DNA of 64,000 nucleotides from Eledone cirrhosa (GCA_964016885.1 OZ024741.1:343604001-343668000); one strand, 5' to 3'; positions 2,131-61,103 are shown, counted from the first letter of the stretch. Made by a program: numbers and translations. Notes: generated by a model not told the origin, from the sequence alone.

Positions 2131-2690
2131 ATAAAATAACAGGAGGCTGGACTGGTGTAATTCCTTAAAAGGTTTATTATACTATGATCATTTCAGTGAA
2201 CGGGTTCAGTATGAATCCGGTGACATCATCAGGTATTCGAAATATAACAAAGGAATATAATAGACACAATCCATGGGGCTGAAAATCAGAGACATGTGGG
2301 CGGCCGAACATTTAGCAGTTCTAGCCCGGTCAGCCGCCCTCGACCGGGCTAGAACTGCTAAATGTTCGGCCACCCTCATGTCTCTGATTTTCAGCCCCAT
2401 GGATTGTGTCTATTATATTCCTTTGTTATATTTCGAATACCTGATGATGTCACCGGATTCATACTGAACCCGTTCACTGAAATGATCATAGTATAATAAA
2501 CCTTTTAAGGAATTACACCAGTCCAGCCTCCTGTTATTTTATAATAATTAACTCCGTACTCGTACCACCAGCTACACAAGCGAAGACGGGTGAGTTGCAT
2601 TACGTCGAGTACTCTCCCTAATATTACATCAAGGTTGACCATACGGAATGACCAGTTCTATCCAGTGGTGAACCAACAAACCTAAATAAA
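2131..2690 (+). mobile_element. Non-autonomous PLE fold-back element: ~410-bp palindrome plus ~150-nt tail
   Basis: Near-perfect inverted repeat 2131-2331/2342-2542 with an HHR in each arm; tail carries TCGAGTACTCT at 2605; (TA)n flanks. Confidence 0.8.
2437..2494 (+). ncRNA. Minimal type I hammerhead ribozyme
   Basis: ATAC-CTGATGA-stem II-GAAA-TGATCA-TA-GTAT; palindromic stem III ATGATCAT; mirror copy at ~2179-2236(-). Confidence 0.75.
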
Positions 2691-2722
2691 TATATGTATA
2701 TATATATATATATATATATAAT

Positions 2723-3030
2723 AGAAAGGACGATATGTTATATCTTCATTACTTTTAATGACGACTAGCCCGACTCTGCAATCAAAAGCTCGTCCGATCA
2801 CTGCTGTGGAAATGTCAGAACCGGGCTAGATCGATACAGATCGAATTTTGAGCTGATCAATACCAAAATATGCGTCACTACTCAATAAACATAATGAAGA
2901 TATAACATATTGTCCTTTTTATTATTACTACAATCTACCATGTTCTACACCTCTATACTTACTGGAAACTACACATCGAGTGCTCACTCTGGTCTGGTAA
3001 ACCTAGAGTAACTGGACGTTACAATCCCGA
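2723..3030 (+). mobile_element. Short PLE-derived element with ~27-bp inverted arm and tail
   Basis: Inverted pair AAAGGACGATATGTTATATCTTCATTA / TAATGAAGATATAACATATTGTCCTTT; tail TCGAGTGCTC at 2976; homologous to 23761-24010(-). Confidence 0.6.
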
Positions 3031-3110
3031 TATATATATAGATATATATATATATATGTGTGTGTGTGTGTGTGTGTGTGTGTGTGTGTGTGTGTGTGTG
3101 TGTGTACATA

Positions 3111-3268
3111 ATAAACAACACAATATAATTGTCCCATTACGAAAGGTGTCGAGAAGCTAGACGGTTCTTGCAGAATAATTATATTGTGTTGTTTATGTCA
3201 TTAAATAGCTCTGTACAATACATAGAGCACTCTTCTTTCCTTTACCTTTTCTACGGAAATACTTAACA
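3111..3268 (+). mobile_element. Short PLE-type stub (20-bp inverted arm plus tail) between (TG)n and (CA)n
   Basis: Inverted repeat 3111-3130/3177-3196; tail hairpin GCTCT...AGAGCACTC at 3208-3232. Confidence 0.5.
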
Positions 3269-3289
3269 CACACACACAGACGCACACGC

Positions 3290-4430
3290 TGCAGAATTAA
3301 CATCGAAGTTGTCACCCATGTAATAAGTAACTGTCCAAAGACGTCATCACGATACTATCTACCTATGAGGCATGATGTAGTGGTCTAAAAAAAGATTGCC
3401 CAGACAATTAACATATCAAAATTACAGCAATGTGGAAGACATACACATACATAATATGAAAAGGTACTGGTGGAATGTTCCAGTTAAAACCCCAATAAAA
3501 TGCAGGCATAACAGACCAGATATTATGATATTGAACAGGAAAAAGAAGGCATGCACAGTAGTGGAATTTATCTGCCCAGCAGATGGTAATATAAAATCAA
3601 GGATTAGCGAGAGATTATGCAGAACTAATGAGGAATCTGCAGATACGCCACACTGACTATACCTTCAGATTTATACCTGTGATTATTGGGGCACTGAGGT
3701 ATGTTAGTAACTGCCTCAATACAAATCATGAGAAGCTGGGCTTCATAGTAACAGAAAGAACACGACTATTTAGGAAATTTTAAATATAATCCATTAAGGG
3801 AACAGTAAAAATATGTAAAACATTCCAAATATTATGCATTTAATAACTGCATATACATTTGAACAGATACAAAGCATATGAACATGGACATATATAACTC
3901 AAAACTTCCACATCCACACACAATAACATCCATACCTACACAAAAATTCATGCATGCAGACATGCAGACATATCTACCTAGTTGATATTATTTAAATCAA
4001 ATCCCGCCGAGGTTAACTTTGCCTTTCATCCTTACGGGGTCGATAAAATAAAGTACCAGTAATGTACTGAGTATTTGCTGGCCTTGTGCCAAAGGTAGAA
4101 TCAATTATTTAGAATCAAATGTCAGAGTCTTGTATCTATGTTAGAAACCGACTCTTTCTGTATTGGTAAACAATTATAAAATTATAAAACCAGAACATAC
4201 ATACATATATACATACAAAGCATATGCATGCACACATACAACTCAAAACATACACTTCCATACATACAATAACATCCATACCTATACACACATGCATGCA
4301 AACATGCAGACATATTTACCTAGTTGATGTTGTGCAAATTCCAATGAGAAGGTCTTGTATCTATGTTAGAAACCGACGCTCTCCTCTATTAGCAAAAATT
4401 TGTGAAATTATAAAACCAGAAGAACATACA
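3290..4430 (+). mobile_element. 3' fragment of an R4/Dong-like (RLE-type) non-LTR retrotransposon with duplicated 3' UTR
   Basis: RHD and HNRPDIMI...VVEF.CP motifs; close homology to 45130-45915; 3' UTR repeated at ~4200-4430; interrupted by a SINE piece. Confidence 0.75.
3995..4110 (+). mobile_element. SINE fragment (recurrent family)
   Basis: AATCCCGCCGAGGTTAACTTTGCCTTTCATCCTTACGGGGTCGATAAAATAAAGTACCAGT recurs at 26170(-), 27085(+) and 54800(-). Confidence 0.65.
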
Positions 4431-58095: not shown

Positions 58096-58220
58096 GTATC
58101 CCGTGTTCAATCAGGGGTAACCACAGTAAGTAAGGTACTCATTACATAGCGGAGTATAAATATTTAATATAGAAATGGCTTCTACAGAACTAGAAATCTT
58201 TCATTCGGGAGAAATCATCA
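58096..58220 (-). mobile_element. PLE pLTR stub (family of 29381-29542)
   Basis: Homologous tail and a truncated HHR (TGATGA-TTTCTCCCGAAT-GAAA-GAT-TT). Confidence 0.65.
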
Positions 58221-59463
58221 TGTGTATGTATATGTATGTATGTAATTCTGTATGTGTGTATGTGTGTGTCAGAGAGAGAGAGAGAGAGAAGGGTGAGAGA
58301 GATAGAAAGAGTCTCTGTGTGTGTGTCTGTGTTTCTGTAGGTATATATTTAATAAATGCAGAGTGATGGATCAGGTCAACAACCACACGCTCTAACACAG
58401 TATTACAATTTAGATGAGTTTTGTGATTCGGAGTATCTAATTCTTTCATAAATCTGTCATTTGAATTCATATTTACATGGATTGGGTTAGTCATGACATA
58501 CAGGTGATTCCAGTACACGTTTACTTTGAAACAGAAAGGAACAATTGCTTATTTTATTTTTTTCAATACATTCCATTGTTGTCTGTACAGAGTGTATTCA
58601 TCGATATCCAGACTATTCTCGTTACCTATGGTAAAATAAACAAATATAAAAATTCAAAGTTACCACAGACGGAAAATCTGTCGCTACCGCAACCATTGTA
58701 ACTAAATCAACATCATAAATAAGGATCGATACATAATTCTTAATATCTTATTTGGTAACCCTGTTATTAAAACTTGTGTGAACAGCAAACGGCTCAATAG
58801 ATAATAACAGCCCAGAGAACTGTAACACCGTGGTTACGAAACAAACCAACAGCAGTGGAAACAATAACAACAGACACGAAAATAACCAAAGCCGTCTTTA
58901 GAATTCCCGAATGTAAAATATCTTTAGAAACATGTGAGGTCTTTAGAAATTGTTTATCTTGTGAGAAACATACAGATAGCTCATATTTCTTCAATATAAA
59001 CACACACACACACATATATATTTATATATGTGTATATGTATATATATATATATATATATATATATATATATATATATATATATATATATACGTGTGTGAG
59101 TGTGTATGTGTGTGTATATATATATATCTGTCTATTTGTCTCTCTCTCTCTCTCTCTCTCTCTCTCTCTCTCTCTCTCTCTTTCTTTCTTTCTATATATA
59201 TATATATATATATATATATATATATACGTATATTTCGTTTCTGAATTTGTTTAGCAAGATTCTTTATCTGAAAACGTGTGTTGAAACCGATATTGTTATA
59301 CTTTGGGAGGGTCATGTTGCCAATAAGAAAAGTACGCACCAGTTGCTTTCACTCCAATTTATTATAAATTAAATTTATAAATTTAAAAAAATTTAAAAAT
59401 TCATAAATTTATAAATTTCCGGTTGGTTGGTTGGTTCCACACCTGGATGGTTGTTCATATATT

Positions 59464-59506
59464 GTCAAAGTACTTTCGTCACACATTATGTGACCTCTTC
59501 AGTGAC
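59464..59506 (-). ncRNA. Minimal hammerhead ribozyme
   Basis: GTCA-CTGAAGA-GGTCACATAATGTGTGAC-GAAA-GTAC-TT-TGAC. Confidence 0.8.
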
Positions 59507-60693
59507 TGGGGATTCTTTTCTTTGTTTTGTGCCTCTCCTTTGTTCTGTCCTACGCCATCTTGTTTTTGTGTGTGTTGTGTGCTTAGTTTGCGCATGTGTT
59601 ACATCCGGGTGTCTGTGTGTGTTTTTATTTGTTTATTTACATGTTACTGGTTTGTTGTTTGTTTTGTGTGTGTGTGTTTTCATTTTGTTCTTAATTGTAA
59701 GTTGTGATGTTACTATTCCATTCATGTTTTATATTTAATTTTGGTTGGAGTTCATTTTTGTTTATTGCCTCTGTGATTTGTCCAAACATTGTGTCTTTTC
59801 TGTGTGCAGATTTTATTTTTATTTCTATGTTCTCTAATTTGCCCCTATGTTCTATTTTAGCATGTTGGTGGAGTACTGATGATTCTTTACTATCTTGAAG
59901 GTCTCGCCAGTGTTCATTTAATCGTTCTCCTATAATACGAGCTGTCTCACTTATGTACACTATATTCTTATCTTTACATTGTCCTTCAGTACACCCTATA
60001 TTATATACTATGTTTCTAGTTTTACAGTTAATATGGGGGCTTAGTTTACAGATTATGCATTTCTTATCTATACAGGGAGGTCTTTGAAAAGGGTATGTAT
60101 TACTAATAAGTTTTTGATGGATGTACCTGGTCTTTCTACTATCTTAATATTTAGTTTAAGTTTATCTAGGGCCCTTCTAAATTTGTAAGCTAATTCACCT
60201 CTAGGTGTTGTATTGATGAACATTACACTCTGGTATTTATTGCTATCATACCATGAGTTTATTCTATTAACCTTATTCCTAGTTCTTTCTATTCTATTCC
60301 AAAATTTGCTACTATACAAGGGACAGGTCCCATTTGTATCATTATTTACCATTTTTTTCCATTTGGTTCTGGCTCCTCTATATACTCTGATTTTATCTCT
60401 CTGATTGTAACCAGAGAATTGCATACGGTGGATGAAGTGTTGTATGTGTCTCTCTAGAAAACATGAATGGATTAGCAACATCAGAACTTACAATTAAGGA
60501 GAAAATGAAAACACACACACATAAAACAAACAACCAACCAGTAACATGTAAATAAACAAATAAATAAACAAATAAAAACACACACAGACACCCGGATGTA
60601 ACACATGCGCAAACTAAGCACACAACACACACAAAAACAAGATGGCGTAGGACAGAACAAATGAGAGCCACAAAACAAAGAAAAGAATCCCCA

Positions 60694-60736
60694 GTCACTG
60701 AAGAGGTCACAGAATGTGTGACGAAAGAACTTTGAC
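60694..60736 (+). ncRNA. Minimal hammerhead ribozyme (right arm, stem III mutated)
   Basis: GTCA-CTGAAGA-stem II-GAAA-GAAC-TT-TGAC. Confidence 0.7.
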
Positions 60737-60913
60737 AATATATGAACAACCATCCGGTTGTGGAACCAACCAACCAACCGGAAATTTATAAATTTTTAAA
60801 TTTTTTTAAATTTATAAATTTAATTTATAATAAATTGGAGTGAAAGCATGTGGTGCGTGTGTATCTTATTGGCAACATGACCCTCCCAAAGTATAACGAT
60901 ATATATATATATA

Positions 60914-61103
60914 TAGGAAAAAGTATGACCCCGACGGCAGAGCTCAAGCCGTTTCGACGGCTATTTCTGGAAATAGCCGTCGAAACGGCTTGAGCTCTGC
61001 CGTCGGGGTCATACTTTTTCCTATTACCCACTCTACTACCCTAAGTATTGATTACTCTGGTGCGTTATGGTCCATCTGGTTCCTTACCACAATTTCTTTG
61101 TTT
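60914..61103 (+). mobile_element. Short PLE fold-back element: 110-bp palindrome plus tail
   Basis: Near-perfect palindrome 60914-61024; tail homologous to 365-445(-). Confidence 0.75.

Follow-up and report, generated by a model that had tools for sequence, protein, structure and literature searches.

Hydra-type Penelope-like elements (PLEs) in the genome of Eledone cirrhosa (G000, 3.0 Gb, AT-rich and dense in microsatellites) carry a small bulged hairpin twice in their pseudo-long terminal repeats (pLTRs). The hairpin was recognized in a stretch of 64,000 nt (G000:C2:343604001-343668000), referred to below as the window. Its two copies lie 55-99 nt apart, each 3-9 nt 3' of one of the two ends of the element, and their sequence and placement make it likely, at roughly two chances in three, that they dock the reverse transcriptase (RT) for a fixed internal start just upstream. 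The motif family is a real and previously undescribed RNA motif. No description of the hairpin, its duplication or its tie to element ends was found in the available portions of the PLE and retrozyme literature, including PMC8557442, PMC11167929, PMC4209133, PMC3846280, PMC7229834, PMC2377424, PMC5737381, PMC11620745 and bioRxiv 10.64898/2026.07.22.740005 (subscription papers might also bear on it). Internal initiation is already known for a Poseidon PLE; neither this motif nor its duplication turned up in that literature.

A bulged hairpin with two covarying stems

The motif consists of RCUC, an inner stem, a variable loop, the other side of the inner stem, a UN bulge and GAGY, often followed by RCUY. 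Its minimal form is about 18-22 nt long with a 0x2 bulge, and its loops measure 4-71 nt. It lies in pLTRs on the sense strand relative to the open reading frames (ORFs), 35-75 nt 3' of a minimal hammerhead core. The original prediction had proposed an ACTC...GAGT(R)CTY consensus, of which the core pairing stands, while the 3' RCTY proves common but not universal, and the UN bulge and the covarying inner stem had been missed. The compensatory GCTC/GAGC form is found as predicted, at 3208/3225 and 22019/22060, with its second occurrence at 57658/57697. Every site that had been cited is present, three of them in decayed form (61030, with GATT for GAGT, and 2976 and, on the minus strand, 418, with the 3' half only). 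A palindromic pairing of GAGY with the following RCTY was considered and dropped, as it shows no covariation and GAGC-ACTC is common.

The motif is also more abundant than had been noted. The pattern ACTC-N8-38-TCGAGTRCTY matches G000 37,276 times, against 1,123 times for its reversed control, i.e., a 33-fold excess; three of 30 genomic loci fetched with this pattern were chance matches, all in another repeat. A second count (10,640 versus 794) is inflated by another repeat resembling long interspersed nuclear elements and is not used as evidence. A sample independent of the motif was assembled from 1.0 Mb of G000 picked regardless of it, together with the window (1.06 Mb in total), and asymmetric fold-backs were defined there as inverted repeats of which one arm abuts (TA)n while the other continues further. 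The motif descriptor fits 30 of the 71 asymmetric fold-backs, versus 1, 3 and 2 of 71 in three controls, and RCTC starts 4-11 nt past the arm end in 27 of these 30. No Rfam family reached its gathering threshold on motif sites among the 150 of 215 matches listed; the hammerhead was likewise absent there, so the search is insensitive to small motifs. Copy 1 of one family (that of window position 61030) is also the building block of a tandem satellite (58-bp unit) that spans at least 7.6 kb at G000:C1:14234974-14242654 (L135-L160).

Both stems covary across families. For this comparison, terminal copies were chosen without any requirement for pairing from 1.5 Mb that included motif-selected loci, which gave 176 hits, against 32 in the reversed sequence, and 21 clusters of at least two copies, three or four of these being antisense or mis-anchored reads that were kept in the counts. 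The first outer position is Watson-Crick in 19 of the 21 clusters (11 A-U, 8 G-C; shuffled mean 10.7), as are inner positions 1 to 4 in 16/21, 17/21, 14/21 and 15/20 (shuffled means 6.9, 11.7, 5.6 and 7.7). Covariation is also apparent in 27 hand-picked instances, where 93.8% of cells are paired, compared with 76.2% after shuffling, and double changes number 39 against 13.1; none of 500 shuffles reached such values, and slid controls pair at most 47.9% of cells.

Hydra-type hosts, paired copies and insertion ends

All eight families for which a protein could be assigned are Hydra-type. The idea that the motif is shared by unrelated PLE termini does not survive this assignment: the families share 42-54% protein identity and are therefore divergent, not unrelated. 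They have a single ORF encoding an RT with a C-terminal GIY-YIG domain. For the latter, Pfam gave a match on 6723-7310 that narrowly misses the cut-off (E-value 2.3e-4; 21.8 bits against 22.6), with no hit for the other seven proteins. Naturally intact Hydra ORFs are present in, for example, L199, L204 and L229. The proteins carry an N-terminal RWK-type motif (RIRWR, RLRWR, and RMRWK in L192), DKT in place of DKG (SDKT in four of four aligned ORFs), and the CxCX5C linker, together with CxxC and CxH around a conserved E and N. The last His of the CCHH motif, a motif missing from the Hydra clade, appears to be absent in family A, described below, and present in L204. The host elements insert at (TA)n, with a predicted hammerhead (core pattern) in the pLTR. 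Such protein motifs, (TA)n targets, hammerheads and one-sided tails are given as marks of the Hydra clade in the available sections of PMC8557442. Family A measures 3.75 kb from the ATG to its short end, exceeding the size of less than 3 kb that is a general, non-diagnostic trait of the clade. On the strength of motifs, target and hammerhead, the hosts can be provisionally assigned to the Hydra clade; Naiad or Nematis, an initial guess, was dropped on comparison with the Hydra section of PMC8557442. A predicted structure of a Hydra protein (mean predicted local distance difference test score, pLDDT, 93.9) has TERT as its top fold match (3du5, E 9.6e-09), a weak match with a TM of 0.34-0.40. 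This match reflects a general likeness of the model to TERT and RTs and says nothing on RNA binding.

The arrangement is clearest in family A, whose fold-back insertion occupies 10811..18419, with (TA)n adjoining its short end (10811) as well as its long end (18419). Copy 1 (18339..18362, plus strand; ACTC-CAAA..TTTG-TC-GAGT-GCTT) sits in the right-arm tail, beginning 9 nt beyond the end of the arm (18329) and 64 nt after a minimal hammerhead core (18233..18274, plus; pattern CTGANGA..GAAA), and the tail ends at 18419. The internal, 5' pLTR on the minus strand has a hammerhead core pattern (14761..14802) and copy 1 (14673..14696); beyond the tail it continues into a second copy (14584..14605; GCTC-CA..TG-TT-GAGC-GCTT), 10 nt past the tail end and 22 nt before the ATG of an ORF (12352..14565, minus) that encodes RT, CxCX5C linker and C-terminal GIY-YIG, with one in-frame stop near 14454. 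The single hairpin that had been proposed for each tail, next to the arm end, corresponds to copy 1; the second copy and the upstream hammerheads had been overlooked.

Two copies 55-99 nt apart were collected by hand in 17 families, 13 from G000 and four metagenomic (copy 1 of L134 is mis-parsed in this set), and in coding families copy 2 sits 21-65 nt 5' of the ATG. Short arms end 3-9 nt upstream of copy 1, and tails end within the same range upstream of copy 2; the tail is therefore the interval between the two hairpins, and having one hairpin for each end explains why a tail exists. Among the ends of family A that abut (TA)n, 21/29 fall at -6 to -4 from copy 1 and 18/23 at -9 from copy 2, the corresponding figures for family L170 being 21/25 at -8 and 28/33 at -6; end mapping left out two of the 17 references, which lacked the 5' half. 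Within a family these offsets hold almost to the base, and they are alike between families despite differing tail lengths and sequences. At most ends, the modal junction shares 2-6 nt with the TA run (upstream mean about 1), which places the true joint between -9 and -3.

The second copy was also sought blind. In family 22019, a search pattern free of the motif showed that the commonest continuation past the tail is GCTC-CC..GG-TT-GAGC, 6 nt on. In family 29440, a search for GCTC past the tail gave only two hits; this scarcity is explained by an open search, which shows GCAC..TA-GTGC-CCTT 7 nt past the tail, without an inner stem. The GCAC/GTGC form is compensatory, both partners of a pair that is invariant elsewhere having changed. 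An assignment of this family to the Neptune type was ruled out, as a Hydra ORF follows its internal copy.

The two kinds of end are coupled. Among 56 fold-backs from eight families with both ends classed in the motif-independent sample (four units being tandem duplicates of one), 53 combine a short and a long end, three have two short ends and none has two long ends, where 27.9 mixed fold-backs would be expected if ends were independent (p 3.5e-13). That tails are usually one-sided has already been stated in words in passages of PMC8557442 and PMC3846280; such a near-strict rule implies that both ends are made in one coupled event. One of the three exceptions, a family A-related fold-back with two short ends, lies in the window at 25233-25598.

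The paired hairpins extend beyond this genome. Nine metagenomic loci encode relatives with 29-35% protein identity, and all six that include pLTR sequence carry the motif, as does a second element in L229 (7/7 elements), four of the loci having contributed to the model used here. Both copies are present in five of the seven elements, and an end lies 2-9 nt before a copy in L227 and in both L229 elements. The two Hydra elements of L229 are distinct and intact; their tails face each other across a single (TA)n tract, and each element carries both hairpins. Viral contigs gave no relatives. Six Hydra consensus sequences in File S7 of PMC8557442 were inspected by eye, and three carry the motif cleanly: sea-cucumber Hydra-1_Ajap has both copies at its start and ends just before copy 1, and copy 1 stands at the end of both Hydra-2_Ajap and coral Hydra-2_Amil. 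The Hydra section and tail passages available from PMC8557442 describe no such hairpin.

The hairpins are also kept in non-coding hammerhead units, namely 472-bp tandem units (L198), dispersed units of about 500 bp (L236-L247) and tandem units of about 190 bp (L251). The units of about 500 bp retain both hairpins and the same two insertion ends; 11 of their 12 loci have no PLE protein hit, and at the twelfth the hit is separated by (TA)n. Non-LTR (long terminal repeat) retrozymes are short non-coding hammerhead repeats thought to be mobilized by PLEs, according to the available text of PMC7229834 and bioRxiv 10.64898/2026.07.22.740005, which describes no such duplicated signal. All three kinds of unit, two of them tandem, are short and non-coding with a type I hammerhead, like the tandem units of non-LTR retrozymes, and differ from them by the two hairpins and by insertion with the same two ends; judged by sequence, they are retrozyme-like Hydra derivatives. 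A further inverted pair of tandem arrays of hammerhead units of about 308 bp, without the motif and ending in (TA)n, lies at G000:C2:343511600-343516000 (L031-L032).

Interpretations of the paired hairpins

If the hairpins position the RT, a transcript through the pLTR would fold both of them, probably with the help of protein, and two RT-endonuclease molecules would bind, one on each. The endonuclease would cut both strands of the (TA)n target, and each target 3' end would pair with a short UA/AU tract before a hairpin, thereby priming cDNA synthesis. The cDNA begun at hairpin 2 would read through hairpin 1 and carry the tail, the other cDNA would lack it, and the two would join head to head into a fold-back. 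In a wider and more tentative proposal, against which the odds lean slightly, a single pLTR-spanning RNA loads two RT-endonuclease subunits on its two hairpins and primes both strands of one cut, so that the fold-back arises in a single coordinated event; the hairpin would then be a portable RT-start address of about 20 nt, and PLE tails in general would result from a duplicated 3' signal, a different one in each clade.

The closest precedent is the Poseidon element PAc. According to the available parts of Frangieh et al. (2024; PMC11167929), PAc cleaves AT-rich DNA in vitro on both strands, extends each of them and starts reverse transcription at two internal sites 3' of the hammerhead, the interval being the tail; hammerhead cleavage is not needed, and a dimer was predicted. 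The likeness is that two internal sites downstream of the hammerhead delimit the tail, sites that are known here from genomic ends only. In contrast, the PAc account concerns one element, with a tail of 30-40 nt inside the ORF and no conserved or duplicated signal described in the sections available (PMC11167929), whereas the Hydra hairpins are clade-wide, duplicated, spaced by 55-99 nt and 5' of the ATG. The original interpretation, in which a conserved RNA element acts in cis and is linked to internal initiation by the RT, gains from covariation, fixed spacing, retention in non-coding units and this in vitro precedent, and is probably correct in that part; its comparison with a template boundary is not, since the hairpin is downstream of the putative start and copy 1 is included in long arms.

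Telomerase RNA has a template boundary and TRBD-binding stems flanking the template; the boundary element is 5' of the template and halts synthesis. The hairpin described here differs from this boundary in lying 3' of the putative start, with copy 1 read through, and would rather resemble telomerase RNA as a structured RNA anchoring an RT of the sister group beside a short primer-alignment tract. Other systems offer partial likenesses: L1 twin priming, with two primers on one RNA, yields inversion without duplication and has no dedicated signal; in R2, a structure in the 3' untranslated region recruits the RT, which starts at the RNA 3' end; and hepadnaviral epsilon is a bulged hairpin fixing the RT start, which templates from its bulge with a protein primer.

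Several observations weigh against a docking role in internal initiation. The covariation shuffles ignore relatedness, outer-stem pairs 2-4 are nearly invariant, outer-stem pair probability is 0.01-0.65 when both copies are folded in context (seven families), and hairpins folded alone give z-scores of -0.08 to -2.95. Wobble counts (7 G-U versus 3 A-C) fix neither the strand nor the molecule, RNA or DNA. The descriptor does not fit 41 of the 71 asymmetric fold-backs, about 12 of which are decayed copies of motif families (by eye), the rest comprising members of a Nematis-like and a Neptune-like family and unassigned units. Copy 2 is reduced in family 29440, where the inner stem is missing, and irregular in family 3208; among the published consensus sequences (PMC8557442 File S7), Hydra-1_Amil has no clear motif, and Hydra-1_Obim and Hydra-1_Crog are variants with mismatches. 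PAc itself has an AC-rich stem-loop without RCUC/GAGY (letters of supplementary figure 1, by eye) and is reported, in the available text, to use start sites that lack homology to the cleaved DNA, in contrast to the TA identity seen here (PMC11167929).

The same data have to be weighed against other explanations. The hairpins could act as single-stranded DNA, each bound by the GIY-YIG endonuclease in a fold-back DNA intermediate that is nicked a few bases 5' of them, copy 1 directing the nick in one arm and copy 2 in the opposite arm, leaving the tail as a resolution product. GIY-YIG enzymes can cut at a distance from their binding site, a single coordinated resolution would likewise yield one short and one long end, and the wobble counts are indecisive. 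In the portions consulted, Craig et al. (PMC8557442) ascribe the tail to endonuclease resolution, and PMC11167929 recounts that the Penelope endonuclease needed tail sequence to recognize plasmid DNA; the latter source, however, also reports that the PAc tail arises in vitro from RT starts on RNA. Both ends abut the target (TA)n with short TA identity, as priming predicts, and plain double-stranded recognition is ruled out by the covariation, the bulge and the loops of 4-71 nt. A role of the hairpins as DNA is considered unlikely.

Rather less probable still is that the hairpins are signals for RNA 3'-end processing, i.e., a new small ribozyme or nuclease site cutting just 5', with the RT starting at ordinary RNA ends of two lengths. 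Each end does lie 5' of a hairpin at a fixed distance, and ribozymes like that of hepatitis delta virus cleave at their own 5' edge. However, the offsets vary between families (3-9 nt), two separately cut RNAs leave the 53/56 mixed pairs unexplained, and no Rfam family passed its threshold among the matches listed. Nor does the form of about 18-22 nt with its 0x2 bulge have the 5x6 internal loop with a CA cleavage site that the available text gives for twister-sister-like ribozymes (PMC11620745), and PAc starts internally on uncut RNA (in the sections seen of PMC11167929). A function in expression (promoter, translation or RNA packaging), the nearness to ends being incidental, would suit the position of copy 2 in coding families, 21-65 nt before the ATG, and the internal promoter attributed to the Penelope pLTR in the available parts of PMC8557442; it appears improbable, as both copies are kept in non-coding derivatives and the end offsets scarcely vary within families and stay similar between families of differing tails. 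Least credible, to the point of being barely worth entertaining, is chance or neutral sequence shared by descent. Loose patterns do match other repeats (3/30 loci, and about half of 100 listed in the second search), yet the 33-fold excess, the compensatory changes and conservation at 29-35% protein identity speak against it, and it is already contradicted by covariation and the blind discovery of copy 2.

Docking of the RT at two hairpins would make long-standing open questions (the PLE transposition cycle, head-to-head inverted copies and the one-sided tail) directly testable, and would name a cis requirement for mobilizing non-autonomous retrozyme-like units. Curators gain a rule for true element ends and a structured RNA family unmatched in Rfam; the system offers a comparison point for template positioning by the sister group of telomerase, and a small portable start signal could serve RNA-templated insertion tools.

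Other copies and elements in the window

Tails in the window are about 67-145 nt long. On the plus strand, the fold-back at 2128-2545 has a hammerhead core pattern (2441..2482) and, in its tail, copy 1 with a 50-nt insert (2551..2614; ACTC/GAGT at 2551/2607). That of 5488-10515 contains pieces of a Hydra-type ORF (6720-8848, minus), a hammerhead core pattern (10414..10450, plus) and, in its tail, copy 1 (10521..10564, plus; ACTC/GAGT 10521/10557), the copy 2 of this family being found in L192. The GCTC/GAGC form of copy 1 occurs in the tail of fold-back 18856-22015 (22019..22067, plus), whose family provided the first blind discovery of copy 2, and in another member of this family (57658..57704, plus). 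It is also found at 3208..3232 (plus), with the sequence GCTC-TGTA..TACA-TA-GAGC-ACTC. The tail of fold-back 52350-52533 has copy 1 with a 1-nt bulge (52541..52564, plus; ACTC/GAGT 52541/52557), a decayed relative of which (18544..18567, minus) follows a hammerhead core at 18639-18618. Decayed copies are also present in the tail of fold-back 60915-61022 (61030..61057, plus; GATT for GAGT), intact family copies and copy 2 being found in L170, at 410..437 (minus, the same family, the site at 418 being the 3' half) and at 2976..2985 (plus, 3' half).

Further copies 1 on the minus strand comprise one with a TAAG/CTTA inner stem (620..648), a relative of 2976 (23800..23848), and two of family 29440, at 29418..29440, 44 nt after a hammerhead core at 29507-29485 and with the variant GCAC/GTGC copy 2 in L257, and at 58133..58155. 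In three Hydra families, hammerhead stem III also reads actc/gagt (in the part seen of PMC8557442 File S2), which is probably unrelated to the tail hairpin.

Not all tailed elements have the motif. A Nematis-like PLE fold-back (59295..60897), which serves as a negative control, and a Neptune-like family have tails without RCTC/GAGY; both labels were given by eye from linker rows in Fig. S2 of PMC8557442. The two ends of the Nematis-like element (L211-L226) are about 60 nt apart, and after each come ATATCG and a possible TATC/GATA hairpin, which as far as its sequence goes is a candidate for an analogous duplicated signal. A motif after the second end of this family was rejected, being present in one chimeric copy only, and the regular continuation differs; in this chimera (G000:C1:100004337), the Nematis-like long end is continued by a Hydra-type, motif-bearing tail, perhaps through a template jump. 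The Neptune-like family (L271, L273, L275, L278 and L279; G000:C10:20012900-20016560) has a tail of 34-40 nt with a short CTC/GAG hairpin past the tail end, and no clear partner past the first end.

A fold-back at 62750-63396 has a 48-nt tail without the motif. Decayed pieces of several kinds of non-LTR retrotransposons occupy 32511-42665 and 43000-50150, with RT and endonuclease-like ORFs and, in some cases, 5' tandem repeats. Finally, a tRNA-like match at 51271-51343 (minus; 30.4 bits versus an Rfam threshold of 29) is possibly the head of a short interspersed nuclear element.

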